Under the pieces are notes generated by a model. It was given only the letters and a program-made list of their open reading frames with translations. It was not told where the DNA came from and did not search any database. Positions 2,874 to 56,220 of a stretch of DNA of 64,000 nucleotides are shown here, in pieces (position 1 is the first letter of the stretch; every line of letters begins with the position of its first letter). The stretch spans positions 22,014-86,013 of the forward strand of contig CAVYBO010000002.1 of NCBI GenBank assembly GCA_963766885.1, given 5' to 3'. The stretch is from an uncultured bacterium. GTDB lineage: Bacteria; Patescibacteriota; Minisyncoccia; Phycocordibacterales; CAIRYW01. The position numbers and the translations under genes are program-made.

Positions 2874-3962
2874 ATGGAAGTCATTATATTTCTTATAATA
2901 ATCACGGCGCTTGTTTTTGCCCACGAGTTGGGGCATTTTTTGATTGCAAAACTTTTCAAAATGAGAGTGGATGAATTTGCTATTGGATTTCCTCCAAGAC
3001 TTTTGTCTTTTAAAGCTGGCGGCACAGTTTATTCAATCAATTTGTTGCCGCTTGGAGGGTTTGTCAAAATTTTTGGCGAGAATCACGAAGATGTGGAAGA
3101 AAATACAGGTGATGGATTTTCTTCAAAGCCAAGATATGCGCAAGTGCTGGTTTTAATTGCCGGAATTGTTTTTAATATTTTGTTTGCTTGGGTTTTGTTT
3201 TCTACGGCATTGATTGTCGGTGCTCCGGCGCAGGCAGATTTAGGAAGCAAAGGCGCAGAGCTTATGATTTCTGATGTTTTGTCTGGGTCTCCGGCAGAAA
3301 TTGCAGGTATAAAATCAGGCGATGTTGTTAAATCCATAAATGTTTCAGGCTCTTCAAAAATTGTTTCCAATCCATCAACAGACGATATAAAAAATGTTTT
3401 ATCTGGCTCCAATGGTAAAGAAATTGATTTGGATATAGTCAGAAACGGCAAAGATTTGAATTTAAAAATTGAGCCGACCAAAACTCTTTCTGCGGAAAAA
3501 GGTAATTTTGCAATAGGGATTGAGATGATAGAAGTTTCTGTTAAAAAATTAGGATTTTTTCCTTCTATTGTTCAGGGAGGGCAGGCAACTATTAATACTG
3601 TAGAGACGACAACGGTGAGCATTTGGGGATTTTTGGCAGAGGCAATTCATGCCAAAGCAGATTTGAGCCAAGTTTCCGGACCTGTTGGAATTGTTTCAAT
3701 TGTTGGCAGTGCTGCTCAGTTTGGATTTGGTTATCTTTTATCTTTTTCCGCCGTCATTTCCATAAACCTTGCTGTAATAAACTTGATCCCGTTTCCGGCG
3801 CTTGATGGAGGGAGAATTTTTATTGTCATCATCGAAGCCATCCGAAGAAAATCAATCAACGCAAATATCACAAACATCATAAATATGGTTGGATTTTTCA
3901 TATTAATTGCATTTATGATTGTCATAACCTACTCCGATTTGAGCCGTATTTTCGGGTGGTAA
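2874..3962 (+). CDS. rseP: RseP-like site-2 protease (M50 zinc metalloprotease with PDZ domain)
   Basis: HELGHF HExxH motif in TM1, PDZ-like middle region, NLIPFPALDGG LDG motif, multi-TM. Confidence 0.8.
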   Translation: MEVIIFLIIITALVFAHELGHFLIAKLFKMRVDEFAIGFPPRLLSFKAGGTVYSINLLPLGGFVKIFGENHEDVEENTGDGFSSKPRYAQVLVLIAGIVFNILFAWVLFSTALIVGAPAQADLGSKGAELMISDVLSGSPAEIAGIKSGDVVKSINVSGSSKIVSNPSTDDIKNVLSGSNGKEIDLDIVRNGKDLNLKIEPTKTLSAEKGNFAIGIEMIEVSVKKLGFFPSIVQGGQATINTVETTTVSIWGFLAEAIHAKADLSQVSGPVGIVSIVGSAAQFGFGYLLSFSAVISINLAVINLIPFPALDGGRIFIVIIEAIRRKSINANITNIINMVGFFILIAFMIVITYSDLSRIFGW

Positions 3963-6357: not shown

Positions 6358-7101
6358 ATGATGAAAAGAAATAACGAGAGCGGTTTGCTCAAATTTGCTG
6401 TTAAGATTTTTGTTTTGGGAATTATTGTGATAGCGCTGCTTTTTCCTTTTAGTGAATTGTTAAAAAAATGGTCGCTTGAAGGAAAGAATTTTACAAATAA
6501 TTTTCCGGGAATGTCTTTTTTTTACAGCAAAGCCTTTCTTTATAAGCAAAATCAGAATTTAGAGAATCAGGTGGCCGTTCTTCAAACACAGGTTTCCGAC
6601 AGGAAACTTTTAGAAGACAAACTCCAGGATTTTTCAAGTTTTGAAAAAGTTTCTGCTGGTTCATTGGCGGCTGAGGTTCTTACTACGCCAGGCAGTTCAA
6701 TTTATGATGTTCTTACGATTTCTGCAGGAAGCGATCAGTCTGTCAAACAGGGAGATATTATTTATTCTGGCAATACCAAAATCGGCTTTATATCAAAAGT
6801 ATTCAGCAATATTTCCGAAGCTACGCTTTTTTCTTCTCCAGGAGAAAAAATCAGTGCAACAATTTATCCTGAAGGCATAACTTTGGATATTGACGGTATT
6901 GGCGGAGGTCTTTTTGAGGCGCTTTTACCCAAGGGTCAGAATATAGATGTTGGAGATTTGGCAGTCGATTTGAAAAATAAACAAGTTATGGGCATAATAG
7001 AAAGCGTTTCTGCCGGAGGAAATAACTCGTTTAACAAACTTATAATAAGGACTCCCGTGAATCCTTTTGAATTAAAATGGGTATCAGTAGCGATAAAATA
7101 A
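6358..7101 (+). CDS. mreC: rod shape-determining protein MreC
   Basis: N-terminal TM, coiled-coil (LENQVAVLQTQVSDRKLLED) then beta-rich domain; position between mreB and mreD. Confidence 0.7.
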   Translation: MMKRNNESGLLKFAVKIFVLGIIVIALLFPFSELLKKWSLEGKNFTNNFPGMSFFYSKAFLYKQNQNLENQVAVLQTQVSDRKLLEDKLQDFSSFEKVSAGSLAAEVLTTPGSSIYDVLTISAGSDQSVKQGDIIYSGNTKIGFISKVFSNISEATLFSSPGEKISATIYPEGITLDIDGIGGGLFEALLPKGQNIDVGDLAVDLKNKQVMGIIESVSAGGNNSFNKLIIRTPVNPFELKWVSVAIK

Positions 7102-7349
7102 TTTGGAGCTTAAGCGCTTTTGTTGCGGCTATGCTGTCAGTATTTTTTTTGCCGTGGTATATTTCTATTTTTTTTCTTATAATTCTCATCTTATCAGGAT
7201 ATAACGCTATTTCAATAATAACAGCCGTTCTCTTGGATAATTTATACGGACAGGGATCAGTATTGCAAGAGCATTTGTTCTTCTTGGCGACGTTTATTTT
7301 CTTGCTTATTGTTTTTGTAGTAAAAAAAAATCTAAGGTGGTTAAATTAA
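7077..7349 (+). CDS. mreD: MreD-like small membrane protein
   Basis: 90 aa, three hydrophobic helices, overlaps the mreC end; position-based call. Confidence 0.45.
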   Translation: MGISSDKIIWSLSAFVAAMLSVFFLPWYISIFFLIILILSGYNAISIITAVLLDNLYGQGSVLQEHLFFLATFIFLLIVFVVKKNLRWLN

Positions 7350-11108: not shown

Positions 11109-11126
11109 TTTTTATAAAAAGTTAAA

Positions 11127-11158
11127 CCGCGCAGAACGAATCTTGCGCGGTTATTTTT
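11127..11158 (+). terminator. intrinsic terminator after lysS
   Basis: ccgcgcaga-acgaa-tcttgcgcgg hairpin followed by ttattttt. Confidence 0.5.
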
Positions 11159-11203
11159 AGGGGATTGAACCCACGGCTTCTTTGCCGAGCGGAGATACCG
11201 CTA

Positions 11204-11764
11204 TTACAATTCCATGGCGGTGGCCATGAGGTATTGCATATTGCTGACCAGGTTTTCGTGGAACTTGAACCCGGGATCCTCAGGGTGAGTGAACGGACGT
11301 CCGGTTTGAAGACCTGACGGGAAGGTTTTACCTTCCGTTTCCATCCACTCCGCGAAGTCGGCGAGCTTGTCGAACCATTCCTCCGACATGGCGCCGGCGA
11401 ACTGGCCGAGTTCCTTGTTGGTGAGGGTGAACTCACAACCGAGAGCGACCGCCGCTTCCTGCCCGAAGAAGACTTCCCGCGGAAAGATGGCGTCCTGAAC
11501 ACCGCAGTAGCGGATGTCGTAGAACACCGGAGCGGCGCGAAAGGTTGTGAGTTCCCCCGCGTGCTCGATTTGCCCCAGAATGACGATCAAACTGGGGAAA
11601 GGGTTGGTGGAGTTGTAGTCGTAGTTTTCCGCGTCCGTGGGTTCCACGACGCGCCAGATTTGGCCGGACAGAATTTCCGCCGGCTTGGTTTGGTTCTGCG
11701 GCGGCATATCCAGCAAAGGATGGAGCGCCAGAGGAAGGATTTTTTTGAGGTCTGCGATTTTCAT
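11204..11764 (-). CDS. hypothetical protein encoded in a GC-rich (about 58%) patch; likely horizontally acquired
   Basis: 186-aa ORF MKIADLKKILPLALHP...; local GC far above the about 35% flanks, and the overlapping shadow ORFs in other frames are typical of GC-rich DNA; no recognisable family. Confidence 0.45.
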   Translation of the reverse strand: MKIADLKKILPLALHPLLDMPPQNQTKPAEILSGQIWRVVEPTDAENYDYNSTNPFPSLIVILGQIEHAGELTTFRAAPVFYDIRYCGVQDAIFPREVFFGQEAAVALGCEFTLTNKELGQFAGAMSEEWFDKLADFAEWMETEGKTFPSGLQTGRPFTHPEDPGFKFHENLVSNMQYLMATAMEL

Positions 11765-12023
11765 AAGTGAGTTGAGTGTGGTTGGAAGGACAATAATCCG
11801 CTTGGCAATGTGCTAGCAAGTCAATTACAGTCTTTCTTCCAAACTCAACTTATAGGTCAGCTTTCAAAGTTCTAATACTTCTATATAATAGCACTTTTTA
11901 TACAAAAAGTCAACATCAATAAAAAACATTGTAAATCCTATCTAAAATCAAATTCGTGAGGTTTTGGAAAGACCAAACCTTTTCTTTTTTATATGTGGAA
12001 AACTGTGGATTGCGCAAAACAAT

Positions 12024-12062
12024 AAGTGGTATAGAATGGTATGTAAGTGGTAAAAAGTGGTA
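12024..12062 (+). promoter_or_regulatory. MraZ-box-like direct repeats (4 x AAGTGGTA at about 10-bp spacing) upstream of mraZ
   Basis: aAGTGGTAtagaaTGGTAtgtAAGTGGTAaaAAGTGGTAag, about 35 nt upstream of the mraZ ATG; MraZ binds GTGG-type direct repeats in its own promoter. Confidence 0.5.
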
Positions 12063-12096
12063 AGTTTTTGGAGTTGAAGTTTGGTCGGAAAAAATC

Positions 12097-12531
12097 ATGT
12101 TAATAGGAGAATACAAACATTCAATAGACGAAAAAAACCGAATGTCGCTGCCAAGCAAATTCCGCAAGGAATTGGGCAAGAAAGTGGTGGCGACATACGG
12201 GCTTGAACAATGTTTGTTTGTCTACGAAATATCGGAATGGAACAGAATCGCTGAGGATATTTCAAAGCTTGGAATGTTAAAAAGCGATACGCGAGAATTT
12301 AACAGATTTATGTTTGGAGGAGCGGTAGAAATTGAGGTTGATGCGCTTGGCAGAATTTTGGTTCCAGAATATCTCAAAAAATATGCGGATCTCAAGGGAA
12401 ATGCCGTGGTCATCGGAGTTCACAAAAGGCTTGAAATCTGGAACGAGAAGAAGTGGGAGGAATACAAGAAAGCGATAGTTTCAAAAGCAGATGGATTAGC
12501 AGAAAAGCTTTCGGAAGCAGGTGCTTTCTAA
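12097..12531 (+). CDS. mraZ: transcriptional regulator MraZ
   Basis: 144 aa; MLIGEYKHSIDEKNRMSLPSKFR, duplicated SpoVT/AbrB-like halves. Confidence 0.9.
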   Translation: MLIGEYKHSIDEKNRMSLPSKFRKELGKKVVATYGLEQCLFVYEISEWNRIAEDISKLGMLKSDTREFNRFMFGGAVEIEVDALGRILVPEYLKKYADLKGNAVVIGVHKRLEIWNEKKWEEYKKAIVSKADGLAEKLSEAGAF

Positions 12532-13444
12532 AGAATTTCAGAGAGAAGTGAACGCACACAAGACAGTTCTTTTACAAGAAACAATTGAAGGTTTGAAGCC
12601 GAAGCTTGGCGGAGTTTATTTAGACGGCACCATAAACGGTGCTGGCGCTTCAGAGCAATTGGCAATCCAAATTGGCAAAGACGGGACAATCGTTGGAATG
12701 GATTTGGATCTTGATGCGCTTGAAAAGGGAAGTGAACGAGTCAAGAAAACAGGAGTCAAATTTTTCGGCATCAATGACAACTTTCGGAATCTGGACAAAG
12801 CTCTCGATTCTCTAGAAATAGAAAAAATTGATGGCGCGATGTTTGACCTTGGATTATCGAGCAACCAGCTTGATTTATCGGGCAGGGGATTCACTTTTCA
12901 AAAGGACGAACCGCTTCTAATGACCTTCAAATCTAATCCAACGGAAAAGGATTTGACTGCATATGACGTAGTGAATAAATTTGAGCAGAAAAATCTAGAA
13001 ACGATTATCAGATACTACGGCGGAGAAAATTTTGCAGGACGCATTGCTCGAGTTATATGCGAAGCAAGAATACAAAAACCGATTGAAACTACTTCTGAAC
13101 TAGCAGAATTGATTTATCAAGCAGTCCCAGCAATTTACAGAAGAGGCAAGATTCATCCAGCCACCAAAACTTTTCAGGCCATCCGAGTTGTGGTGAACGA
13201 CGAGATTGAATCTTTGAAGGAAGGTTTGGAAAAATCACTCGAAAGACTGAATTCTGGAGGAAGAGTTGTGGTGATAAGTTTTGAGAGTTTAACGGACGGA
13301 GTGGCCAAAAGATTTTTTAAAGAGAAAGCCAAAGATAAAAAGATTTTAATAATAACAAAGAAACCGATTGTTCCAACAGAAAGAGAAATTAGCGATAATC
13401 CACGATCAAGAAGTTCCAAATTAAGAATCGCGGAAAAGATTTAA
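12521..13444 (+). CDS. rsmH: 16S rRNA (cytosine1402-N4)-methyltransferase RsmH
   Basis: 307 aa; VLLQETIEGL...YLDGT.NGAG..., follows mraZ. Confidence 0.9.
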   Translation: MLSKEFQREVNAHKTVLLQETIEGLKPKLGGVYLDGTINGAGASEQLAIQIGKDGTIVGMDLDLDALEKGSERVKKTGVKFFGINDNFRNLDKALDSLEIEKIDGAMFDLGLSSNQLDLSGRGFTFQKDEPLLMTFKSNPTEKDLTAYDVVNKFEQKNLETIIRYYGGENFAGRIARVICEARIQKPIETTSELAELIYQAVPAIYRRGKIHPATKTFQAIRVVVNDEIESLKEGLEKSLERLNSGGRVVVISFESLTDGVAKRFFKEKAKDKKILIITKKPIVPTEREISDNPRSRSSKLRIAEKI

Positions 13445-13492
13445 GAGAAATTTAATAAAAAAATTTAAAAATTAACAAAATAAAAAAATACC

Positions 13493-13792
13493 ATGACAAG
13501 CATGCCATCTCAGTACAAATTCAAAAAAACTTTCTGGATGTTTTCCAGTGCGTCTTTTGGCATGATTGTTATTTATGTTTTTCTTGTATTTTTCACTGTT
13601 TCCCATACTCTTTCAAGGGAAAATAGTGAAAAATCAATTCAAAATATCCTTTCAAATATAAGCGAGAAAGAATCCACTTATATGAGCCTTGAGGCTTCTA
13701 TTACGCCAGATCTTGCCACAGCCAAAGGATTTGTAGATGCAAATAACACTATAGTCGTCAGGGCGGGAGCAACTTTGACTATGCGCAATTAA
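13493..13792 (+). CDS. ftsL: FtsL-like cell division membrane protein (by position)
   Basis: 99 aa, single TM, sits between rsmH and ftsI as in dcw clusters. Confidence 0.45.
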   Translation: MTSMPSQYKFKKTFWMFSSASFGMIVIYVFLVFFTVSHTLSRENSEKSIQNILSNISEKESTYMSLEASITPDLATAKGFVDANNTIVVRAGATLTMRN

Positions 13793-13799
13793 TTAAATA

Positions 13800-15497
13800 A
13801 TGAAATTTCTCAACCCAATCAGGCTAATATCGATTTTAATCATATTGGCGGGTTTTATCTTTGTCTTAAAACTTTACGACATACAAATTGTCAAACATAA
13901 TGAATATGTTCAAATCGCCAATAATCAGTACCAAAGACCGCAGGGATTTTTTGATAGAGGAACAATATATTTTGAGGATAAAGACGGCAATAAAATATCG
14001 GCGGCTACAGTAAAATCAGGATATATTCTTGCTATAAATCCAGAACTTATTGTTAATAAGCAAGATGCTTACAATAAACTATCATCGGTTGTAAGTGGTA
14101 TTGATAAGACGGATTTTTTAGACAAAGCCTCAGAGCAAGATACATATGAAGTAATTCAAAAGGAGGTTGATTCTGATACAGGAAAAAAAATACAAGCACT
14201 CAATATTTCAGGAGTAATTCTTGATAGTGACAACTGGAGATTTTACCCTGGAAATTCAACTGCTTCACAGGTGCTCGGCATCGTTGGCTATCAGGGCAAT
14301 GATTTGGCTGGAAGGTATGGTTTGGAAGAAGAATATAACTCTGTTTTGGAAAGGAATCAGAGCGACCTTTATACTAATTTTTTTGTTCAAATATTTTCAA
14401 ATATAAAATCAAGCGTGGACTCTGATAATTCAGAGGGAGATATTGTTACAACAATTGAGCCGAATGTTCAAGCTGCTCTTGAAAATACTCTTCAGAAAAT
14501 TCAAACAACATGGTCTTCCGAAGAAACAGGCGGCATTATAATGAATCCGCAAAACGGAGAAATAATCGCCATGGCTGCGTATCCCAATTTTAACCCCAAT
14601 GATTTCTCAGATGTCAGTTCTGTTGGTGTGTTTAAAAATCCATTAGTTGAAGATGTTAGAGAAATGGGCTCAATAATGAAAGTTGTAACTATGGCTTCTG
14701 GAATTGATGCTGGCCTTGTAACTGCCTCCACAACTTATGATGATGTTGGATATGTGAAAGCGGACGGCAGCACAATTTATAACTTTGACAAGCAAGGAAG
14801 GGGAGTGATTACGATGCAGACTGTACTTGATGATTCGCTCAACACAGGCGCATCGTTTGTAGAGCAAAAACTTGGCAACAAAAGATTTACGGACTATTTT
14901 TTTAAGTTTGGTCTTGGTGAAAAAACCAATATTGATTTGCCGGACGAAGCGCAAGACCTCGTTTCAAATCTTCAAAGCACTAGAGATATTGAGCATATTA
15001 CTGCTTCGTACGGACAGGGAATTGCCCTAACTCCAATTGCCACTGCCCGAGCCCTTGCTGCTGTGGCCAATGGCGGGTATTTGGTCCAGCCTCACGTTGT
15101 CAAAGAAGCCGATCCTATTGAAGGAATTCCTTATTATCCATTTGCCAGCTATAAGCCGGTACAAGTGATTTCAAAATCTGCTTCACAGAAAGTAACGGCA
15201 ATGCTTATAAACGTTGTTGATACAGCTCTGCTTGGGGGGGCAGGAAAGAATCCACACTATACTGTTGCTGCCAAAACTGGTACAGCTCAGATTCCTTCAC
15301 CAAGTGGAGGATATTATTCTGACAGGTATCTTCACTCTTTCATGGGTTATTTTCCTGCTACAAACCCTCAATTTTTAATTTTAATGTATACTGTTTACCC
15401 AAAAACGCAGTTATATGCAGCGTCAACCCTGGCACAGCCGTTTTTGGACTTGAGCCATTTTATTATAAATTATTACTCAATCCCGCCTGACAGATAA
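13800..15497 (+). CDS. ftsI: peptidoglycan D,D-transpeptidase FtsI (PBP3)
   Basis: 565 aa; N-term TM, SxxK (SIMKV), SxN (SLNTGA), KTG (KTGTAQ). Confidence 0.85.
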   Translation: MKFLNPIRLISILIILAGFIFVLKLYDIQIVKHNEYVQIANNQYQRPQGFFDRGTIYFEDKDGNKISAATVKSGYILAINPELIVNKQDAYNKLSSVVSGIDKTDFLDKASEQDTYEVIQKEVDSDTGKKIQALNISGVILDSDNWRFYPGNSTASQVLGIVGYQGNDLAGRYGLEEEYNSVLERNQSDLYTNFFVQIFSNIKSSVDSDNSEGDIVTTIEPNVQAALENTLQKIQTTWSSEETGGIIMNPQNGEIIAMAAYPNFNPNDFSDVSSVGVFKNPLVEDVREMGSIMKVVTMASGIDAGLVTASTTYDDVGYVKADGSTIYNFDKQGRGVITMQTVLDDSLNTGASFVEQKLGNKRFTDYFFKFGLGEKTNIDLPDEAQDLVSNLQSTRDIEHITASYGQGIALTPIATARALAAVANGGYLVQPHVVKEADPIEGIPYYPFASYKPVQVISKSASQKVTAMLINVVDTALLGGAGKNPHYTVAAKTGTAQIPSPSGGYYSDRYLHSFMGYFPATNPQFLILMYTVYPKTQLYAASTLAQPFLDLSHFIINYYSIPPDR

Positions 15498-15503
15498 TAC
15501 AAC

Positions 15504-16796
15504 ATGAAAAATTATTTAAAAAAAATCATTGTTTTTATTCTTACAATCGAGGCTAAGCTTGTCCTAAGGAAATACAAGCCTAAAATTATTGCTGTCACGG
15601 GAAGCGCCGGCAAGACATCCACCAAGGACGCTATTTATACCGCTATTTCTTCATCGCTTCATGTTCGCAAAAGCGCCAAAAGCTACAACAGCGATATAGG
15701 AATTCCTCTGACCATTCTTGGCCTTGAAAATCCTTGGAATAATTATAAAAAATGGCTAACAAATATTCTAAAAGGCGCCATTGTTGCTTTGAAGAAGCAA
15801 AAATATCCAGAATATCTTGTTCTTGAAATCGGCGCAGACAGGCCAGGAGAAATCAAGCGTCTTATGAAATGGATTCACCCCGATATCTCAGTGGTTACGC
15901 TTATAGGCAAAGTGCCAGTGCATGTTGAGTTTTACGATTCCGTTGAGAGTGTTATAAAAGAAAAAAGTGAAATTATAAAAAATCTCAAACCGGATGGTTT
16001 TGCGATTTTGAATGCTGACGATGAGGATGTGCGCGATATGAGGCATTTAACAGGCGCCAAAACGATAACATTCGGCATAAAGAATAAGGCAGATGTTTCT
16101 GTTGTTTTTCCGTCTATTATCTATGATGAATCCGGTGCGCCAATTGGCATGAGCGCCAAGATTGATGTTTCGGGATCGAGTTTTCCTATTATCATAAATG
16201 GTGCGCTTGGTATTCAGCAGATTTATCCTGTGGCCGCGGCTTTTGCTGTAGCTATGGTTAAGAATTTAAATCTTCTGGAAGTTGCCACAGCATTCAAAGA
16301 TCACGAAGTGCCAAAAGGCAGAGTCAAGATTATCAAAGGCATAAAAGATTCAACTATAATTGATGATACTTACAACGCTTCTCCGGCAGCTGTTGAAGAA
16401 GGTTTGAATATTTTAAGCGAAATAAAAACTCACGGCAAAAAAATCGCAATTCTGGGCGATATGCTTGAACTTGGCAGGCATTCATCTTCTGAACACAGAA
16501 GAATCGGCGAGATAGCAGGAAAAATTTGCAATGTTGTTATTGGCGTGGGTATCCGTTCGCGCGAGCTTGCCAATGCCGCGCAAGTGGCAGGAATTTCCAA
16601 GAGTGATGTTTATTTTGTTGATGATTCAATTCAGGCGGGGGAGACCGCGGCCAAGTTGATTGACACTGGAGACGTTGTTTACATCAAAGGCTCGCAAGGA
16701 ATGAGAATGGAAAAAACAGTAGAAAAAATAATGCAGGAAAAACACAAAAAAGAAGAACTTTTGGTGCGACAAGAAAAAGAATGGTTGGAGAGGTAA
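15504..16796 (+). CDS. murF: UDP-N-acetylmuramoyl-tripeptide--D-alanyl-D-alanine ligase MurF
   Basis: 430 aa; IAVTGSAGKTSTKD P-loop, NSDIGIPLTIL, DDTYNASP, GDMLELG motifs. Confidence 0.8.
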   Translation: MKNYLKKIIVFILTIEAKLVLRKYKPKIIAVTGSAGKTSTKDAIYTAISSSLHVRKSAKSYNSDIGIPLTILGLENPWNNYKKWLTNILKGAIVALKKQKYPEYLVLEIGADRPGEIKRLMKWIHPDISVVTLIGKVPVHVEFYDSVESVIKEKSEIIKNLKPDGFAILNADDEDVRDMRHLTGAKTITFGIKNKADVSVVFPSIIYDESGAPIGMSAKIDVSGSSFPIIINGALGIQQIYPVAAAFAVAMVKNLNLLEVATAFKDHEVPKGRVKIIKGIKDSTIIDDTYNASPAAVEEGLNILSEIKTHGKKIAILGDMLELGRHSSSEHRRIGEIAGKICNVVIGVGIRSRELANAAQVAGISKSDVYFVDDSIQAGETAAKLIDTGDVVYIKGSQGMRMEKTVEKIMQEKHKKEELLVRQEKEWLER

Positions 16797-16836
16797 TATA
16801 AGTATAAAAAATAGCAGAAAACGGGAAGTAATCTGC

Positions 16837-17436
16837 TTAACGTCTTCGGAAAACTAGAGCTATTACACCCAAGGCAACGAATACGCAGTACAAAATGCTT
16901 GGCTCAGGCACGCTCATCTGGAGTGCGGGCGTTTGAGTTTCTGCTCCCGCGCTGATTTGCTGTAGAGCCGAAGTGTCTTTTGTGCTTGCAACGCTAACGT
17001 AATCGATCGCCCAAGTGTAGCTACCGGTAACCGTCGGAACGACATCGTCGAGGTTGAAGACAAATTCACGACTGGTGCCCTCTGGAATTACATACCAGAA
17101 TGCATCATCTCCGCTGATTGGAGTGGGAGCAAGCATGTCCGGATCGATGTTTTCTTCAGTGTCCAATGTTGGACTTGCGGCGACGCCGTTGATTGTGAAT
17201 GTGAATCCATCGTCACCGAGCGGAACTGATGCTCTGCGGACGTACTCAGTTTGGGTATCCGCGGAGATATTGATATCGATTCCGAAGTAACCCAATTCCT
17301 CGTAGGTGCTAGAGTACTCTGGTTTTTGCACCTCGTAGGAGGCGCATTCCGTCCAGTTCACGCTTACTTGGGTTGCGTTTGCCGAAGTGATTCCTACCCA
17401 AGAGAGTAGGACCAGTAAAGAATATTTAAAGTTCAT
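16837..17436 (-). CDS. PEP-CTERM-type secreted protein (signal peptide plus C-terminal VPEP-TM-RRR sorting signal), GC-rich
   Basis: Start at MNFKYSLLVLLSWVGITSANA (the ORF track extends further upstream); C-terminus ...VPEPSILYCVFVALGVIALVFRRR; local GC about 50% versus about 35% genome. Confidence 0.6.
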   Translation of the reverse strand: MNFKYSLLVLLSWVGITSANATQVSVNWTECASYEVQKPEYSSTYEELGYFGIDINISADTQTEYVRRASVPLGDDGFTFTINGVAASPTLDTEENIDPDMLAPTPISGDDAFWYVIPEGTSREFVFNLDDVVPTVTGSYTWAIDYVSVASTKDTSALQQISAGAETQTPALQMSVPEPSILYCVFVALGVIALVFRRR

Positions 17437-17470
17437 AATCAGAAAAACACTAACATAAATACTTAATTTT

Positions 17471-18523
17471 GTAAAGATACACGTATAGGTCCAATAGCTT
17501 GGCACCACTTTGGTGGGTTAACATCAAAGGTATGCCATACACAACAAATAAGAATATGCCGAAGATTAGGCAACAAGCAGCTGATTTAGTCAGAAGAGGT
17601 TGGAGCAGAAGAAAGGTTGGTCGATATTTGGGATTTCACCATACAGCGATATCTGAATGGGTCAGAATTGCAAAGAAAATAGGGTATCATCCCATACTAA
17701 CAAGATCATCAAGACCGAAACATCATCCCCAACAATTGGATGAAAGAATCATTAGAAAAATCGTGGAGAAAAGATTAGAGCATGGTCGATATGCGGAAGC
17801 GGTACACAGGGAGCTTCAAAACGATGGTGTGAAAGTTTCTTTGTCATCAGTCAAAAGAACTCTCGACCGGAAGAGACTCATCAAAAAGAGAAGTCCGTAC
17901 AAACGATTCCATCCTCACCAAGATCGCCCATATCCCTTGAAATCAGGCGATTTGGTGCAAATTGATACTATTCATCGGATGGTTGATGGAAAGAAAAGAC
18001 TGTACGTGTTTGTGGTCATTGATGTATTTTCAAGATGGACATACGCAAAAGCATTTGAACGGATGAATGCAAGAACAAGTATTGATTTTGTCAGAGCAGC
18101 GCAAAGAGAATCGTCCTTCCATTTTGATATGTTGCAGTCAGACCATGGACCAGAGTTTGGTAAGTGGTTTGTCTCAAATATCAAAAAGAGCCACAGGTAT
18201 ACCAGAATTGGCAAACCCAATGACAATGCTCATATCGAAAGATTCAACAGGACTCTACAGGAAGAATGCCTGGACAAAGTTCCTAACGATATTCGAATTA
18301 TCAATTGTGCTTTGAAGAAATATTTGAGATATTACAATTTTGAGCGAGTGCACGGAGGAATCAATTATTCAATTCCCATGCAGGTGGTGTGAAGCTATTG
18401 ATTAGATTACGGTATTCAAAATCTTTCGTACCAAGTTAATTGAATGGCAAAGATTTGGAGAGATGCTTTCTAAACAAGATTAGACGCTTGCAATATTTCT
18501 ATACTTTTGTACCATATTAAACA
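17471..18523 (+). mobile_element. IS481-family insertion sequence (putative ends)
   Basis: Transposase ORF flanked by imperfect inverted ends beginning TGT (17471 tgtaaagatacacgtatagg versus reverse complement of 18498-18523 tgtttaatatggtacaaaagtataga); ends are approximate. Confidence 0.4.
17499..18392 (+). CDS. IS481-family (DDE/rve integrase core) transposase
   Basis: N-terminal HTH (GWSRRKVGRYLGFHHTAISEWV), DDE triad (QIDTI, SDHGPEF, NAHIERFNRTL); the track start is TTG, internal ATGs at 17532/17556 are more likely starts. Confidence 0.8.
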   Translation: MAPLWWVNIKGMPYTTNKNMPKIRQQAADLVRRGWSRRKVGRYLGFHHTAISEWVRIAKKIGYHPILTRSSRPKHHPQQLDERIIRKIVEKRLEHGRYAEAVHRELQNDGVKVSLSSVKRTLDRKRLIKKRSPYKRFHPHQDRPYPLKSGDLVQIDTIHRMVDGKKRLYVFVVIDVFSRWTYAKAFERMNARTSIDFVRAAQRESSFHFDMLQSDHGPEFGKWFVSNIKKSHRYTRIGKPNDNAHIERFNRTLQEECLDKVPNDIRIINCALKKYLRYYNFERVHGGINYSIPMQVV

Positions 18524-18539
18524 GAGAGTACATTTAGAC

Positions 18540-18860
18540 CGAAAGCCAAGGCGGCGCACGCCGTCGAATGACGAGAGCGTAAACAAACGCAGACCAATAG
18601 CTAATGGTGGCAAGTTGCCATAGAAACGGATGGGGGGACTTGTTCCCGCTTATCATGTACCGAAGCTTTGGACGACAAGCTCTGCAGCTGTGAGACGTAT
18701 TCTCACATGACGTGGAGTGATTACTCAGGGATACTTAGTGCATCAATAGGTAGTTACGTTGGGGATTTCCGTCTCCTAGAGGCGGTCGCGTGGTAGGTCT
18801 TTTGTTTCTTTCTCTTTGAACCCTCGACGTTTCGGCGTCGGGGGTTCTACTTTTTATATC
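18540..18860 (+). ncRNA. candidate structured ncRNA (GC-rich, ORF-free, ends in an intrinsic terminator); identity unresolved
   Basis: About 320 nt at about 52% GC with no credible ORF, many local hairpins, terminal ccctcgacg-tttcgg-cgtcggggg hairpin plus T-run at 18819-18855. Confidence 0.3.
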
Positions 18861-18873
18861 TGTTTCCAAGTCT

Positions 18874-18963
18874 ATAAAATATCCCATTAGGTTGCGCCAA
18901 AAAACTATTAAAAAATATGAATAAAAAAAGCTGTGACCCAAGTGGTCGCAAATTGGAACCGAG
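18874..18963. repeat. direct repeat copy A: tRNA-Glu downstream flank plus decayed tRNA 3'-half (att-like)
   Basis: aaaatatcccattaggttgcgccaaaaaactattaaaaaatatgaataaaaaaagctgtgaccc... aligns at about 75% with 19364-19455. Confidence 0.5.
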
Positions 18964-19045
18964 TCTTGGAGAATATAAAGGTTTTTCAGGAATTTGTATA
19001 AAAAATTCGCCCATTTCTGAGCGATGATACTTCTTGGTGTTTATA

Positions 19046-19300
19046 TCACCTTGTCCGATGTCTATAGTGCGTACTCCTGTAGGCTACTGTTACCACCCAG
19101 AGAACCAAAGCCGTGATCAACACAACGATGGGGATAGTGAGTACAGGATTAACCTTGAGGAAGTAACAGACGGTACATACCAGAGCCCAGATCACCAGGC
19201 CAAACGGCGTAGCGAACAAGATGAAACAACTGACACCTATGAAGAACCCAATGAGCACAAGTCTCATTGCTGCCTTGTAGGAAGGATTTTGAATGCTCAT
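19046..19300 (-). CDS. small hydrophobic protein (2 TM), GC-elevated, between the att-like repeats
   Basis: 84-aa ORF with two clear TM helices; it overlaps a + strand ORF of poorer composition. Confidence 0.3.
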   Translation of the reverse strand: MSIQNPSYKAAMRLVLIGFFIGVSCFILFATPFGLVIWALVCTVCYFLKVNPVLTIPIVVLITALVLWVVTVAYRSTHYRHRTR

Positions 19301-19363
19301 AAATTCTGACCAAATTTAATCATTATTTTAGGAAAAGTCAAATTATATAGATTGATTCCAATT

Positions 19364-19455
19364 TTATAAAAAATCCCATTAGGTTGCTTCAAAAAACCTT
19401 TGAAAAATATGGTTAGAAAAATCTATGACCCTACCGGGAATTGAACCCGGATTTA
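19364..19455. repeat. direct repeat copy B (abuts and overlaps the 3' half of tRNA-Glu)
   Basis: ttataaaaaatcccattaggttgcttcaaaaaacctttgaaaaatatggttagaaaaatctatgaccc followed by the intact tRNA. Confidence 0.5.
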
Positions 19456-19497
19456 AGCCTTGAGAAGGCTCCGTCCTAACCGTTAGACGATAGGGCC
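19426..19497 (-). tRNA. tRNA-Glu (anticodon CUC)
   Basis: Manual cloverleaf: acceptor GGCCCTA/TAGGGTC, D-stem GTCT/GGAC, anticodon stem GAGCC/GGCTT with loop TTCTCAA, T-arm CCGGG-TTCAATT-CCCGG, 72 nt, no encoded CCA. Confidence 0.85.
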
Positions 19498-19609
19498 AAG
19501 TCAAACAATTTTACACAAAATCAAAGAAAAATCTATTTTAGATGAAACTTTTTGGTATGTGATACGATATAAAAAAGAGGTCTTTTTATTAATTTAATTT
19601 TAAAAATAT

Positions 19610-20156: not shown

Positions 20157-21308
20157 TTGGATTTTTCTCATAAAGAAATTATATCAAAGTTTCAAATAAT
20201 ATATACTATTGCTATGGCAATTTTTAGAAAGGAAGCTTTAAAGCATTTTTATGAAAAATACGAGCGGCATATTGGTTCGCTGACAATTATTATCGGATTC
20301 GTTTTTGATAATGTTGCCATCCGCCAGTCTGTAATTAACACCCAAACCCAAGTATTTTTGACTTATATTATTCTAGCGGGACTTTCAATTCTTATTTTGC
20401 ATTGGATAGAGGGTAAAGAGGGGAGAAAAGAAAATTACGCAACACTGCATTTTTGGATTTTTCTTTTGATGCAGTTTAGTATTGGAAGCTTGTTTAGCAT
20501 GTTCTTTGTTTTTTATTCTCGCGGTGTATCGATTGCAACTTCGTGGCCGTTTCTGCTTTTGCTTTTTGGAAATCTTGTCGGCAATGAATTATTTAAAAAG
20601 TATTATTCGCAATTAAGCTTGCAGGTTTCGCTTTATTTTATTGGTATTTTTTCTTTCTTTATTTATTTCATGCCGACAGTACTTCATGAAATGAGCGTAA
20701 GAGTTTTTATTTACAGCGGCATCACTAGTCTACTCACAGTTTTTGTTTTTATGCGTCTTCTGGAATTAATTTCAATCCAAAGAGTCAGGAAGTGGCGACC
20801 CAGGATTGCAATCGGTGTTTTGTTTGTATATTTGTTGATAAACGTTTTTTATTTTACAAACATCATTCCGCCTGTACCGCTTGTGATGAAAGAGGGTGGT
20901 GTCTATCATAATTTTTCTGTAAATAGCGAAGGGGATTATGTGGTTGAAGCGGAACAAAAATCATGGAGCAGTGTTTTTGATGAATATCCAATATATCATC
21001 GTGCTCCGAATGAAATAGTATATGTGGTTACCTCTGTTTTTGCTCCGGCACAATTGGATACAACTTTGATTCATGATTGGCAATATTTTGATCCTGTAAC
21101 AAAAAAGTGGCAGAGTGAAAGCAAAGTAAAAGTGCCTATTGTTGGCGGCCGGGAAGGCGGTTACAGATTTTATTCACTGAAACAAAGTATTACCTCTGGA
21201 AAATGGAGAGTGGATGTGGAGACAACTCAAGGACAAATTGTAGGACAAATAAAATTTGAAATTGTTGACAGCACTTCAACTCCGAGTTTGTCTAAAGTGG
21301 TGTATTAA
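20157..21308 (+). CDS. polytopic membrane protein with a C-terminal beta-rich extracytoplasmic domain (DUF2914-like?)
   Basis: 383 aa; about 8 TM helices then a 130-aa soluble domain (GKWRVDVETTQGQIVGQIKFEIV). Confidence 0.5.
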   Translation: MDFSHKEIISKFQIIYTIAMAIFRKEALKHFYEKYERHIGSLTIIIGFVFDNVAIRQSVINTQTQVFLTYIILAGLSILILHWIEGKEGRKENYATLHFWIFLLMQFSIGSLFSMFFVFYSRGVSIATSWPFLLLLFGNLVGNELFKKYYSQLSLQVSLYFIGIFSFFIYFMPTVLHEMSVRVFIYSGITSLLTVFVFMRLLELISIQRVRKWRPRIAIGVLFVYLLINVFYFTNIIPPVPLVMKEGGVYHNFSVNSEGDYVVEAEQKSWSSVFDEYPIYHRAPNEIVYVVTSVFAPAQLDTTLIHDWQYFDPVTKKWQSESKVKVPIVGGREGGYRFYSLKQSITSGKWRVDVETTQGQIVGQIKFEIVDSTSTPSLSKVVY

Positions 21309-23468: not shown

Positions 23469-24080
23469 TTGCTTTTGAAATTTTGCTTTGTTAAGCTTGG
23501 CAAAGTTATGTTCAATAAAGCCATTATTATTCTTGAAGTAAAGCCGTTTCCGCCCAGAGCTCCAGCTGATTATGTTCCCCAAAGAACCTGGGAAGAGCTA
23601 CTTGAAATTGCTGCTCAGCACGGTGATTGGATTTCGATCCAAACGCATCGATGGTTTCGGGGCAGTTTCGATCTCATCTCGCGGGCGAGAAGTCTGACTG
23701 ACAAACCGATTTTGGCCAAAGGCTGGCACACCGACGATGAGGTGGAGCAACTGATTGAAATAGGAGCAACCAATGTTCTCGTGATCAACAGGATTCCGCA
23801 TACCAGATACAACAGTCAGTGCTTGATCGAGCCATATTACCGTGAAGAGTTCTTGAGGATTCCGCCGGAATTCAAAATGGTATGGAATTCCAGAGATCTC
23901 TTTGCTCTGGAAAATCAACTACCTCAAGGTGTGAAGGAAGATTTCTCAATCATCCGAGATCTGCGTCCAGATGTCTGGCTCTGCCAAGCGTCCAACATCA
24001 AGAAAGTGACAGATATCCATCCTGAGGCCAATGCGGCGCTGATTGGGACGAATCTCGAGGAATTTGTGGCTTCGCTTTGA
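23469..24080 (+). CDS. indole-3-glycerol-phosphate synthase (TrpC)-like TIM-barrel protein, N-terminally short, GC-rich; possibly a remnant
   Basis: IILEVKPFPP, PILAKGWHTDDEVEQLIEIGATNVLVI, WNSRDLFAL resemble TrpC motifs (IIAEVKKASP / PxLxKDFIxDxYQIxEAxxxGADxVLLI / GINNRDL); only 203 aa; GC about 50%. Confidence 0.4.
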   Translation: MLLKFCFVKLGKVMFNKAIIILEVKPFPPRAPADYVPQRTWEELLEIAAQHGDWISIQTHRWFRGSFDLISRARSLTDKPILAKGWHTDDEVEQLIEIGATNVLVINRIPHTRYNSQCLIEPYYREEFLRIPPEFKMVWNSRDLFALENQLPQGVKEDFSIIRDLRPDVWLCQASNIKKVTDIHPEANAALIGTNLEEFVASL

Positions 24081-25260: not shown

Positions 25261-26652
25261 TTAAAAGGCATCATCTTGCAAAAAGTCTCCGATATTTGAC
25301 CTGTCAACATTTAGGAAGGTTGTTCGCTCTTCATCAAAGAATAAATCAATGCTTCCAACAGGGCCGTTTCGGTGTTTGTCGATATGGATTTGAGCGATAT
25401 TTTTTTTGTCGGAATCTTCGCGATATTTGTCTTCGCGATGAATAAACATAACCACGTCAGCATCCTGTTCTATAGATCCAGAATCTCTAAGGTCAGAGAG
25501 TTTTGGCCGACCGCTGCCGCCACGTTGTTCTACAGCTCGGGATAACTGTGAAAGAGCTAAAACAGGAACTTCAAGTTCACGGGCCAAGTGTTTGAGAGAT
25601 CTAGAAATTTCAGTCACTTGTTGAACCAAGTTGTCGTTATTTTTGGTTGAAACTGGTGTCATGAGCTGAAGATAATCAACAATAATCAAACCCAGACCTT
25701 TTTCACGCTTCAGGCGCCTGCCGATTGAGCGCATCTTCAAAGAATTTATTCCTGGCTCATCGTCAATATAAATCGGTGCTTTGGAAAGTCTCTCAAGAGA
25801 ATTTCTAATATTGTCAAAATCTTTGTCCGCTGAAAGTTTGCCAGTGCGGAGTTTCCAAGCATTTACTTTTGAATCTGCGGCAAGCATTCTATCTACCAAT
25901 TGTCCGGAGCTCATTTCCAAAGAAAATATTCCAACAGGAATATTGTGATTAACCGCAGCTTGGCGGGCAATGTCTAGTGCCAAAGCGGTTTTACCCATCG
26001 AAGGACGGGCCGCAAGAATGACTAAGTCTGATTTCTGAAGTCCGGAAAGCATATTATCCAAATCTCTGAAACCAGTTGGAATTCCGCGTAATGCTCCGCC
26101 TGCGTTGTGCAGATTTTCAAGCCGCTCCCAAGCTTCACCAAGAGTATCTTTTATATCAATAAATTTTCTTGAACTTCCGGATGTTGCGATTTCAAAAACT
26201 TCCTTTTCGGCTTTATCAATAATCATTTCAATTTCTTCTTCGGAAGTGTAACCCATCAAGCTGATTTTTTCTGCGGCTTCAATTAATCTGCGAAGCAGAT
26301 ATTTCTGGCGCACAAGCTCGCCGTAATAGATTGCGTTTGCAGTGGACGGCACACTCTGGACCATTTCTGTTAGATAGCTTTTGCCGCCGACAGAGTGCAA
26401 AGTCTCTTTGCTTTCAAGTTTGGTTGAAAGGGAGAGTAAATCAATTGGTTCATTTTTGGAAAATAATTCTTGCATGGAGGCAAAAATCATTCTGTGTTTT
26501 TCTGAATAAAAAGAATCTTTGTTTACAATGTCCGCAATGTCATACATCACATCAGGACGAAGCATTATGGATCCAAGGAGTGCCATCTCGCTTTCAATAT
26601 GCTGCGGCGGAATTTTTAATGTCTCTCTTTTAATAGTTGTTTTGGTCGCCAT
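25261..26652 (-). CDS. dnaB: replicative DNA helicase DnaB
   Basis: 463 aa; Walker A ARPSMGKTALAL, DnaB N- and C-terminal domains. Confidence 0.9.
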   Translation of the reverse strand: MATKTTIKRETLKIPPQHIESEMALLGSIMLRPDVMYDIADIVNKDSFYSEKHRMIFASMQELFSKNEPIDLLSLSTKLESKETLHSVGGKSYLTEMVQSVPSTANAIYYGELVRQKYLLRRLIEAAEKISLMGYTSEEEIEMIIDKAEKEVFEIATSGSSRKFIDIKDTLGEAWERLENLHNAGGALRGIPTGFRDLDNMLSGLQKSDLVILAARPSMGKTALALDIARQAAVNHNIPVGIFSLEMSSGQLVDRMLAADSKVNAWKLRTGKLSADKDFDNIRNSLERLSKAPIYIDDEPGINSLKMRSIGRRLKREKGLGLIIVDYLQLMTPVSTKNNDNLVQQVTEISRSLKHLARELEVPVLALSQLSRAVEQRGGSGRPKLSDLRDSGSIEQDADVVMFIHREDKYREDSDKKNIAQIHIDKHRNGPVGSIDLFFDEERTTFLNVDRSNIGDFLQDDAF

Positions 26653-26727
26653 GTAAAACTATTCTATCAGTCTCAAAATAATAAAAAAGCTTGAAAAAGG
26701 GGAATAGGTGTGTGTAATGTGGGGAGA

Positions 26728-26790
26728 ACAAATTTTTATTAAAAACAGGCCACCATCGCCTCTGTGGGATGGTGGCCTTCTGTTGTTTTT
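26728..26790. terminator. bidirectional intrinsic terminator hairpin
   Basis: ggccaccatc-gcctctgtgg-gatggtggcc (10-bp stem) with T-runs on both strands. Confidence 0.5.
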
Positions 26791-27190
26791 GGTTCGGTTC
26801 GAGCCCTGGTTTTTGGTCGCCTTGTGGAAACCAATCAGCAGGGTAGTTCGCCGTGCTAAAGAACCTTTCTATCACTTCTCGCGTCTGTTTGGTGATTAGC
26901 CAACAACACGTGTGCGCAATTTGTTTATTCGGTTTGCGATTACCGCCGGATTCACGTCTGCGATTGCTCGCATTTGTTATTCTGACACTTGCCCTAACGC
27001 AAGTTCCTCTCAGCCGAGTGTGCTTTTACATTTATATCCCTGCCCGCGTCGGTTTATCCAGGCCTCCAGCCTCCCCGGAGGGTTTAAGAGTAAGAGCGGT
27101 TTTGGGCGGCAGCTGCCTGATTCCGATGTCAGACTCGGTCTATCAGATCTGCTTGGCTGCCGGGCCGATGGGATCACCCCATCATAATTA
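26790..27190 (-). ncRNA. candidate structured ncRNA: GC-rich (about 52%) ORF-free region bounded by a terminator; strand and identity unresolved
   Basis: No protein-like ORF (the ORFs here are Cys/Arg/Ser-rich shadows); GC-rich helices; weak similarity to RNase P CR-II/III and CR-V on the + strand and to the 4.5S motif GCAGCCAAGGCAGAU on the - strand; none conclusive. Confidence 0.3.
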
Positions 27191-27340
27191 ATCATTTTTT
27201 TGATGTAGGTGCCGAAGTATGCAAGTTTGCCTGCAGACACTAGCTAGTTTGCATATACTCCTCGACGGAAAATAAAATACTATATTTAATTATTTTGTCA
27301 ATAGTTATGAAAGTTTGAATCCAGTTTATAATTCTCGACT

Positions 27341-29545: not shown

Positions 29546-30262
29546 ATGAATAAAATTGACGAAAGGCTGATAATCGGTCTGGATGTCCCAACTGTGGGGA
29601 AAGCACTCCACATCATTGACCAACTGGGCGACACGCCTTGGGGGTACAAGATCGGACCTGAAATGGTGCTGACGCAAGAACTGGAAACTCTTACTCGCGC
29701 AATTAAAAACGTGCGAGCGCGGATTTTCCTGGATAACAAGTGGGCCAATACTCCTGATGTGACGGCGGCGTGCGTTAAGCGCGCCGGCGACTGGGGTTTT
29801 GACATGTGCAACATTATGCTCGATGGTACTGGGCCGGAGATGATTGAGAAGTCTGCCGAATCTGCCGCTTCTTATCCCGAGATGATGCTTCTTGGAGTCA
29901 CTGTGCTGACAACGCGTGATGATAACTCACTCAAGGCAACGGGGGTTTCTGATGGCCGCGAGGCACAAGTGATTCGGCTTGCGGGGCTTGCAAAGAACTC
30001 GGGCATTAATGTTCTTGTTGCAAGCTCAAACGAAATCGTTCCTCTGAGGGGGGAGAAGTTCGGCAATTTCTTCGGTCTTGTTGTACCGGGCACTCGTTCG
30101 GCTGGCGCAGATGCGAAGGATCAAAAGAACATTACTTTGCCTGCGGTGGCGCTTCAGCGTGGAGCAAATTGGCTTGTAATTGCAAGCCAGGTTGTAAAAG
30201 CCGAAAACCCCAAGCAGGCTTACGACGATCTTGTGGCTGAAATTCAAGAAGCCTGTCTCTAA
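29546..30262 (+). CDS. pyrF: orotidine-5'-phosphate decarboxylase, GC-rich
   Basis: 238 aa; LIIGLDVP..., KIGPEM, DNKWANTP motifs of OMP decarboxylase; GC about 52%. Confidence 0.75.
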   Translation: MNKIDERLIIGLDVPTVGKALHIIDQLGDTPWGYKIGPEMVLTQELETLTRAIKNVRARIFLDNKWANTPDVTAACVKRAGDWGFDMCNIMLDGTGPEMIEKSAESAASYPEMMLLGVTVLTTRDDNSLKATGVSDGREAQVIRLAGLAKNSGINVLVASSNEIVPLRGEKFGNFFGLVVPGTRSAGADAKDQKNITLPAVALQRGANWLVIASQVVKAENPKQAYDDLVAEIQEACL

Positions 30263-30280
30263 ATTTCGTACAGCTTTTAA

Positions 30281-30310
30281 GCACCCAAACCTGGGTGCAA
30301 TTTTTATTTT
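30281..30310 (+). terminator. intrinsic terminator after pyrF
   Basis: gcacccaaacctgggtgc hairpin plus aatttttatttt. Confidence 0.6.
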
Positions 30311-30336
30311 ACATATTTTAAATTTGTGTTAGTTTA

Positions 30337-31035
30337 ATGGCAGGGAATAAGAGGGCAGAACATTTCAGAAAACAATCAAAAGAAGAAATCCTAATGCACA
30401 ATAATCAGAAAGGGTGGATTGAAAATTTCACCCAAATGGGCGCTTTTTGGCGTCATGACGGAAATCCGAAGCGGCCTCACGCGCTTCTTACAAAAGGCGG
30501 TCACAGCAACGGCTTCTTCAATGGCAATGTTGTTGTGGAGAATCCGGTCTGTCTGGATTCTGTGGCTTACGACATCACAAGGAAATGTGACTCATCCGTG
30601 GTCATCGATCGCGTTGTTGGTCCCGCAATGGGCGCCATCAAACTTGCTCATGATCTGGGCAGGAACCTGAAGGCCCTCGGCGGCTTTATGGTCAAAAAAG
30701 TCAGCGACGACAAAGGGGTTCTCTGGGTGCCGGATCGATTTCATCCGCTTCCTGCGGAGCGAATCGCGCCTTGCGAAGATACAATTACTACCGGCGGAAG
30801 CATTCTGGGGATGATTGAAGCCCTCGAAAGATTGGGGGCCGAAGTGCTTCCTTTCATCTTCGCCATTGTCAATCGCTCCGGTTTGACCGAAGTTAATGGC
30901 CGCGAGATCATCGCGCTCATCAACTGCCCGATGGACAACTGGAAGCCAGACGAATATCCGCTCTGCGCCGAAGGTTCACAGGCCATCCGGCCTAAGGAAG
31001 ACGACAACTGGTCGCTTCTGACCGCAGAGTACTAG
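30337..31035 (+). CDS. pyrE: type I phosphoribosyltransferase, probably orotate phosphoribosyltransferase (PyrE), GC-rich
   Basis: PRPP-binding motif LWVPDRF...CEDTITTGGSI; adjacent to pyrF; GC about 52%. Confidence 0.55.
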   Translation: MAGNKRAEHFRKQSKEEILMHNNQKGWIENFTQMGAFWRHDGNPKRPHALLTKGGHSNGFFNGNVVVENPVCLDSVAYDITRKCDSSVVIDRVVGPAMGAIKLAHDLGRNLKALGGFMVKKVSDDKGVLWVPDRFHPLPAERIAPCEDTITTGGSILGMIEALERLGAEVLPFIFAIVNRSGLTEVNGREIIALINCPMDNWKPDEYPLCAEGSQAIRPKEDDNWSLLTAEY

Positions 31036-44268: not shown

Positions 44269-44278
44269 TACTTTTAAA

Positions 44279-45952: not shown

Positions 45953-45955
45953 AAA

Positions 45956-48189: not shown

Positions 48190-48191
48190 AT

Positions 48192-50834: not shown

Positions 50835-50896
50835 AATGAATTACTAATTACTTGACTGAAATATAATTATATCACACCAGAAAACATTTTTTGGCT

Positions 50897-51286: not shown

Positions 51287-51300
51287 TACATTATTATAGC

Positions 51301-53091: not shown

Positions 53092-53102
53092 ATTTTGATG
53101 GT

Positions 53103-54176: not shown

Positions 54177-54185
54177 TTCTCACTT

Positions 54186-56063: not shown

Positions 56064-56220
56064 AATTTTTGTTTAATTAAGTTTAATAAAGCCTAAGTAA
56101 ATAAAATTATCCAAAAGTTTTTATGGTACGGACATAATTTCTGCTGAAATTTGTCCTCGTTCTCGCGCCGTCGCGCTCCGAAAGCCCAAAAAACATTTGA
56201 TAATTTTATTTTCTGAACGA

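Follow-up and report, generated by a model that had tools for sequence, protein, structure and literature searches.

How does a gene whose product ends in a PEP-CTERM-type sorting signal come to lie in a stretch of bacterial DNA in which no exosortase is found, and what might such a tail do there? This question is raised by an intact open reading frame (ORF) with an ATG start that encodes a secreted-type protein of 199 aa at 16837..17436 (−; stop codon 16837–16839) in a 64-kb stretch of contig CAVYBO010000002.1 (hereafter, the window). The PEP-CTERM signal is a module of approximately 24 residues at the C-terminus of proteins with signal peptides; it usually occurs in many copies per genome (median, 8), is restricted to bacteria that possess an outer membrane and genes for exopolysaccharide (EPS), and co-occurs with EpsH/exosortase (Haft et al., 2006; PMC1569441). 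The protein described here has the sequence-level features of PEP-CTERM proteins, whereas the genome-level features were not seen within the window. We consider it moderately probable that the gene is a recently laterally acquired orphan, either encoding a product that is exported by the Sec pathway and anchored by its tail, or not used at all. The searches for further tails and for an exosortase cover the window, i.e., approximately 11% of the 596,164-bp contig.

Features of the encoded protein and scores of its tail

The longest ORF at this locus extends to a GTG at 17508, and the database version of the protein (P0001, 222 aa) starts at approximately 17505, inside the left inverted repeat of a neighboring insertion sequence (IS). 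Because the latter start falls inside the left end of the IS, we consider the ATG at 17436 to be the credible start of the gene. By inspection of the translation, the protein read from this ATG has a canonical Sec-type signal peptide (residues 1–21, MNFKYSLLVLLSWVGITSANA, followed by TQ; 17374..17436, −), with a basic n-region, a hydrophobic core, and an A-x-A cleavage site. The protein has just two hydrophobic segments, this one and that of the tail. The intervening ectodomain (residues 22–174, approximately 150 aa; 16915..17373, −) has no such segment, and it carries a conserved GD..W..IP.G..R.F.F.L...P..TG.Y.W motif. Structure prediction modeled the ectodomain, at moderate confidence (mean pLDDT of 66), as an all-beta, Ig-like sandwich of 12 strands. 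The tail comprises residues 175–199 (16840..16914, −) and reads S-VPEP-SILYCVFVALGVIALVF-RRR from S175 to R199, i.e., a Pro-Glu-Pro motif, a hydrophobic helix, and a basic cluster at the extreme end.

A reading made from the sequence alone (hereafter, the sequence-only reading) had taken this C-terminus to be the exosortase recognition signal and had named TIGR02595 as the model by which to check it. With the Pfam model PF07589, the protein scored 21.2 bits against a gathering threshold of 20.7 (E = 3e-4), which is a narrow pass, and with the NCBIfam model TIGR02595 it scored 13.5 bits, below the 16-bit cutoff. Taken from the window protein alone, the PEP-CTERM call would rate as marginal. The protein also matched two models of small proteins of similar length, NF038129 (21.6 bits against a cutoff of 65; E = 1.5e-4; residues 134–199 only) and the exosortase-dependent surface protein XDP1 (NF041927; 17.2 bits against a cutoff of 125; E = 3.8e-3; the last ~65 residues). 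The weak similarity over residues 134–199 covers more than the 24-residue tail; the N-terminal two-thirds of the protein show no similarity to these proteins, and membership in either family was rejected because the scores are far under the family cutoffs.

Conservation of the tail in a rare family

When 1.84 billion representative proteins were searched exhaustively with HMMER, five other sequences were returned, four of which (P0002, P0003, P0004, and P0006) are true homologues with 30–37% identity to the window protein; the fifth, P0005, is a long repeat protein that matched weakly and was rejected. The four true homologues all keep the ending of VPEP, transmembrane (TM) segment, and RR(R/K). 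Residues V176, P177, E178, P179, and R197 are invariant across the five-member family, and a signal peptide is present in every homologue with a complete N-terminus. PEP-CTERM family models, led by NF038129, were matched by all five members, and TIGR02595 was matched at E ≤ 1 by four of the five (best E = 4.1e-5). One member also weakly matches a sortase-signal model, and others match MYXO-CTERM/GlyGly-CTERM models, all far more weakly than they match the PEP-CTERM family models. Since all four true homologues retain the VPEP-TM-RR(R/K) arrangement, the tail is more than a chance pattern and is a functional module conserved throughout a very rare family. With the Pfam pass and this conservation, the earlier identification of the C-terminus as a PEP-CTERM-type signal stands.

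The five-member family is genuinely rare. Word-indexed protein searches returned the protein itself and then only P0004 and P0006; a pattern search of the Joint Genome Institute (JGI) metagenomes with a three-sequence family alignment found nothing, and no relative was found among the GTDB-representative genomes. The homologues sit on unbinned metagenome contigs, including Hain_H41_01um_R1_63697 of ERZ1292625, SRR27751817_489557, and one from ERZ1426847, so the EPS-producing Gram-negative donor implied by the sequence-only reading is not established. P0004 derives from a 0.1-μm filter fraction of groundwater (metagenome ERZ1292625), which also holds copies of the Paceibacteria-type IS described below. 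P0006 lies at native composition on a contig of 38% GC, and no exosortase was found in its 6.3-kb context, including its 277-aa membrane neighbor.

Search for an exosortase in the window

An exosortase is a polytopic membrane protein. All window ORFs for which at least four TM segments were predicted were compared with NCBIfam, Pfam, or precomputed Pfam models, and no exosortase or archaeosortase match was found among them, in agreement with the sequence-only reading. These ORFs encode RseP (2874–3962), a DUF2914 membrane protein (20157–21308), FtsW (37699–38796), MraY (38796–39872), a 231-aa protein with five TM segments and no assigned identity (43573–44268), a HisKA_7TM histidine kinase (44279–45952), and an ABC transporter (51301–53091). 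The 231-aa and DUF2914 proteins were considered as exosortase candidates and rejected, having no exosortase match. The ORF at 7077–7349, which adjoins mreC and encodes 90 aa with three predicted TM segments, is too short to be an exosortase and was left out of the model scan. A regular-expression scan of all six frames of the window found no second PEP-type tail, and no EPS locus was noticed there; a non-exhaustive look at the window likewise turned up neither a sortase nor a rhombosortase. In the literature searched, there was no paper with both “exosortase” and “Patescibacteria,” and pairing exosortase or PEP-CTERM with other names from the Candidate Phyla Radiation (CPR) yielded incidental mentions only.

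Atypical composition and probable gene import

The GC content of the gene is 49.5% and that of its third codon positions (GC3) is 52%, compared with a GC content of 38.5% for the window and a median GC3 of 34%; the neighboring murF, ftsI, and lysS have GC3 values of 31–37%. By GC3 the gene ranks fourth among 74 ORFs (robust z = 3.5), and the contrast shows in codon usage, beyond amino-acid content. The figure of approximately 50% GC given for the gene in the sequence-only reading was accurate, whereas its background of approximately 35% was slightly too low. Recent lateral transfer, one of its two proposals, is also the best reading.

The gene is not alone in this respect. The most foreign composition in the window is that of a gene at 11204–11764 (−; GC, 56.5%; GC3, 73%), the 186-aa product of which had no Pfam or NCBIfam match. 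A pyrE-like gene (30337–31035) has a GC3 of 58% and pyrF (29546–30262) one of 52%, and two or three smaller stretches of the window are also atypical in composition. Because several window genes equal or exceed the PEP-CTERM gene in this regard, the genome is a mosaic with several imported genes. As one of these equally atypical genes is present in an independent assembly, gene import into a mosaic genome is favored over contamination.

Support from an independent assembly

The independent evidence comes from the Logan assemblies of run ERR11630394, which contain the same organism: contig L014 corresponds to window positions 11123–16707 (99.98% identity) and contig L015 to 44186–56454 (100%). 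L014 joins the gene at 11204–11764 to the native mraZ-rsmH-ftsI-murF genes, and this gene is therefore no artefact of a single assembler. A single gap sets the 5,586 bases of L014 apart from the window, and the Logan product of this gene has 161 aa rather than 186; a frameshift within the gene is a possible cause of the discrepancy.

L014 stops at 16707, 130 bp before the stop codon of the PEP-CTERM gene. We do not take this break as a sign of a problem at the junction, as the Logan contigs of the organism are all short (2–19 kb); several housekeeping proteins are likewise absent from Logan. Exact look-ups in the contig index, made with both versions of the PEP-CTERM protein (222 aa and 199 aa) and with MurF, found none of them on file and hence no independent contig with the gene. 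The native left neighbor is a MurF-like ligase gene (15504..16796, +; TIGR01143, 252.9 bits; GC, 40%; GC3, 37%), which L014 reproduces up to 16707. It is convergent with the PEP-CTERM gene, and the two are joined by 40 bp of unique sequence.

The adjacent insertion sequence

On its other side, the PEP-CTERM gene faces a 930-bp IS481-family element (17482..18411, +), the ends of which were set by alignment to other copies; it runs from CGTATAGG to GATTACG, with imperfect terminal inverted repeats. The element encodes a 286-aa DDE transposase (17532..18392, +) with rve and rve_3 domains, whose best match is the IS481 model NF033577. The assignment to IS481 made in the sequence-only reading holds as to the closest family, and the score of 160.9 bits lies under the cutoff of 224. 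Like the IS481 family, the element has a DDE (rve) transposase and terminal inverted repeats, and other copies of it have a 6-bp target site duplication (TSD). It is unlike that family in its compactness, with an ORF that reaches both inverted repeats, in its sub-cutoff score, and in its target, since IS481 itself inserts at NCTAGN.

The element has a host-like GC content (40%) and a single copy in the window. Its transposase has 6,692 homologues at E ≤ 1e-20, and the top 120 are 72–84% identical; where one of these 120 carries an organism name, it is “Parcubacteria group bacterium” or “Candidatus Paceibacterota bacterium.” Hainich groundwater contigs, some of them from 0.1-μm filter fractions, make up many of the metagenome loci with the element, and many metagenome contigs of approximately 1 kb consist of the IS alone. 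This type of IS is thus abundant both in contigs labeled as Parcubacteria/Paceibacterota and in those from groundwater.

Among 34 distinct flank contexts outside the window, a perfect 6-bp TSD was present in 10 and absent from the other 24. In nearly all flank contexts, (T/A)(T/A)GTCAA lies directly to the left of the target 6-mer, and the element, as these flanks show, inserts in a fixed orientation 6 bp from this motif, which on the opposite strand resembles a TTGACA-like −35 element. The window copy is flanked by GATACA to its left and GTATTC to its right and so has no TSD; its two flanks were therefore originally not contiguous. Recombination between IS copies, or an assembly join through the repeat, explains the missing duplication, and the 24 other copies without a TSD, together with this one, suggest that such events are frequent. 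Neither of them touches the junction of murF with the PEP-CTERM gene, a unique stretch of 40 bp.

The sequence-only reading had suggested that the gene might have been carried in with this IS, which our results contradict. The start codon of the gene lies 45 bp outside the IS end. No second IS end was found near the gene with up to three mismatches allowed, and at approximately 90 other loci with the IS, no neighbor of the PEP-CTERM family or with a PEP-type tail was found. As the gene is outside the element, has no second IS end, and has no counterpart at these ~90 loci, the IS, itself host-like in GC, did not deliver it. A composite transposon was also considered and rejected: positions 16828–16847 are 70% complementary to the right end of the IS, which is chance level, and a second end was not found.

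The window counterpart of the GTCAA motif is TTGTAAA (17469–17475), which reads TTTACA on the minus strand. It is followed by 17 nt, TAGTGT, a further 10 nt, and the ATG of the PEP-CTERM gene, and this arrangement (17447..17475, −) may be a promoter-like site, albeit a candidate that is weak by consensus; a consensus promoter scan does not report it, the −10 hexamer matching at only three of six positions.

The probable host

The MraZ and FtsI proteins of the window are 52% and 34% identical, respectively, to those of a Saccharibacteria locus and 35% and 29% identical to those of a Clostridia locus. No relative with at least 90% identity to DnaK, RpoA, S4, LysRS, CysRS, MraY, or FtsI was found among approximately 15 billion proteins, and this lineage is without a close relative among sequenced genomes. 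Judging from the relatives of the IS, the dcw proteins, the low GC content, the sparse genes, and the contig size of 596 kb, the host is most likely a small-genome bacterium of the Paceibacteria/Parcubacteria (CPR). CPR bacteria are regarded as lacking an outer membrane.

A proposed imported orphan and the alternatives

On this evidence, we lean toward the import of an orphan gene. If the gene is expressed, Sec would export its product, and the signal peptide would be cut after Ala21. The ~150-aa beta sandwich would end up outside the cell, and the VPEP-TM-RRR tail would hold the protein in the cytoplasmic membrane with the RRR cluster inside. In the donor lineage, the tail would have been recognized and cleaved by an exosortase. 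In the present host, it would most likely serve as a mere C-terminal membrane anchor, or else the gene may be an unused passenger; we read the tail as no more than an anchor because no exosortase was found within the 64 kb and hosts of the probable type are not known to encode the enzyme, which is probably absent from the genome as a whole. The IS, which would be endemic to the host lineage, may have inserted beside the promoter-like GTCAA motif of the gene, and its missing TSD may have resulted from later recombination at the IS or from an assembly join through it.

Several points weigh against this account. The TIGR02595 score of the protein is under the curated cutoff (13.5 against 16 bits), and the Pfam margin is just 0.5 bit. 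The candidate promoter is weak by consensus. The junction between murF and the PEP-CTERM gene is seen in the window assembly alone, L014 having stopped 130 bp short of the gene. The host phylum is supported indirectly, and no protein relatives with at least 90% identity were found. Moreover, the 64 kb that were read come from a contig no shorter than 596 kb, so an exosortase may lie elsewhere. Finally, with P0006 at native composition and P0004 from a 0.1-μm fraction, ultra-small bacteria may be the native hosts of the family, a reading that would favor a functional sorting system in those organisms.

The last two points lead to an alternative in which the genome has a working exosortase-type system, with the enzyme and perhaps more PEP-CTERM proteins outside the window; the tail would then be cleaved at VPEP and the ectodomain passed to a cell-surface acceptor. 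We regard this as unlikely, yet as deserving a real share of belief. The retention of the tail in every homologue at only 30–37% overall identity implies selection by a recognizing enzyme somewhere, and the low-GC contig of P0006 and the Paceibacteria-type IS copies in the metagenome of P0004 point in the same direction. Furthermore, work on archaeosortases by Haft and colleagues from 2012 is said to indicate that an outer membrane is not mechanistically required. Set against this are the window, which yielded neither an exosortase nor a second PEP-type tail although PEP-CTERM genomes usually carry many copies (median, 8; PMC1569441), and the unameliorated GC3, which marks the gene as a newcomer. 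The 6.3-kb context of P0006 likewise yielded no exosortase, and no paper pairing “exosortase” with “Patescibacteria” emerged from the literature searched. A broader version, in which an ultra-small, probably monoderm CPR/Paceibacteria lineage uses PEP-CTERM-type signals with an exosortase-like enzyme or a substitute not so far reported from that group, would break the rule of an outer membrane and EPS loci and make the five-member family its substrates; we think it doubtful. Alternatively, the tail might be processed by some other host enzyme, such as a sortase-like transpeptidase or a protease of the signal-peptidase or rhomboid type, in which case its likeness to PEP-CTERM would not predict its route. 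The sortase-signal match of one family member and the MYXO-CTERM/GlyGly-CTERM matches of others hint at this; since those matches are far weaker than the PEP-CTERM ones, the invariant VPEP is no known sortase motif, and the non-exhaustive scan of the window noted no sortase or rhombosortase, we give it very little credence.

An assembly artefact is a further alternative: a GC-rich segment of approximately 0.65 kb from another organism might have been joined into the contig, for instance, through the repeated IS, much as the sequence-only reading had allowed for contaminating DNA. The missing TSD, the high repetition of the IS in such metagenomes with their many IS-only contigs of ~1 kb, the end of L014 at 16707, and the recording of the protein from NCBI/ENA and not from Logan would all fit. 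However, the left junction to murF is made of 40 bp of unique sequence without a repeat, and a chimera formed through the IS would swap one whole side rather than insert a single gene of 0.65 kb. The GTCAA-N6 motif to the left of the IS is, in addition, the usual left-flank context of the element. The end of L014 loses its force given Logan contigs that are short throughout and the absence from Logan of several housekeeping proteins as well, and other GC-rich genes of the window are independently confirmed (as at 11204–11764) or plainly integrated. We therefore hold contamination to be improbable and continue to prefer the lateral acquisition of an orphan gene.

Comparison with known sorting systems and implications

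The protein shares with PEP-CTERM proteins (TIGR02595/PF07589; PMC1569441) a signal peptide, a TM-free and non-homologous ectodomain, the P-E-P motif, a helix of ~17 residues, and a basic C-terminus. It differs in its setting: PEP-CTERM proteins usually number several per genome and occur in EPS-producing diderms, whereas here there is one copy in 64 kb with no exosortase close by, and the host is probably a CPR bacterium with a very small genome. The order of motif, TM helix, and basic tail is also that of LPXTG/sortase anchoring, which would suit the monoderm envelope expected of the probable host; the motif here is VPEP, however, and LPXTG models gave no significant match. In mechanism, this is an ordinary case: a signal of known type sits on a new, very rare family of ectodomains, and the probable host is unexpected.

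If the host has been assigned correctly and its genome does lack an exosortase, the locus is a clean case of a sorting-signal protein stranded without its enzyme after transfer into a reduced genome, and the gene illustrates gene import into CPR genomes. It would also call for caution in annotation, as a PEP-CTERM match would be no proof of an exosortase system. If an exosortase is instead present in the genome, this kind of sorting extends to a major and poorly understood radiation whose surface proteins mediate host attachment. In a CPR host without an outer membrane, such a working system would be an unreported setting for exosortase sorting.

Neighboring features and other observations

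The region from murF to a tRNA-Glu(CTC) gene (16797–19498) looks like a variable spot, bounded on the right by the tRNA gene (19425..19498, −). To the right of the IS is a GC-rich (48–51%) non-coding stretch (18500..18855, +), which ends in a strong intrinsic terminator with a 13-bp stem (18818–18847), has a fold z of −3.5, and matched no Rfam family with the E threshold relaxed to 10. Possible readings are an unclassified structured RNA of ~330 nt or a remnant of foreign DNA, and the stretch is perhaps part of the same variable region. A 79-bp direct repeat (18861–18939 and 19353–19431; 82% identical) brackets an ORF for an 84-aa membrane protein (19046–19300, −), and its second copy abuts the tRNA gene at the 3′ end; the repeat looks like an att-like sequence or a duplication scar at the tRNA. 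The MurF-like protein has a Lys/Glu-rich C-terminal extension of ~23 residues past the MurF profile (16725–16796, outside L014). In the GTDB-representative genomes, MurF found only uninformative loci, at 24–28% identity.

Elsewhere in the window, pyrF and the gene for the pyrE-like phosphoribosyltransferase adjoin at 29546–31035 (+; 51–52% GC) and look like an imported pair for pyrimidine salvage or biosynthesis. Two further patches have a GC content of 46–51%: one at 23469–24080 (+) with a weak IGPS-like Pfam match, and one at 26630–27191, in which only doubtful ORFs and no Rfam match were found. Lastly, a cluster on the minus strand (44279–50834) consists of genes for the HisKA_7TM histidine kinase, a nitroreductase/TM1586-like protein, a ThiF-family protein, a DegT-type aminotransferase, and a 516-aa protein of unknown type, and it could be a peptide- or sugar-modification cassette.

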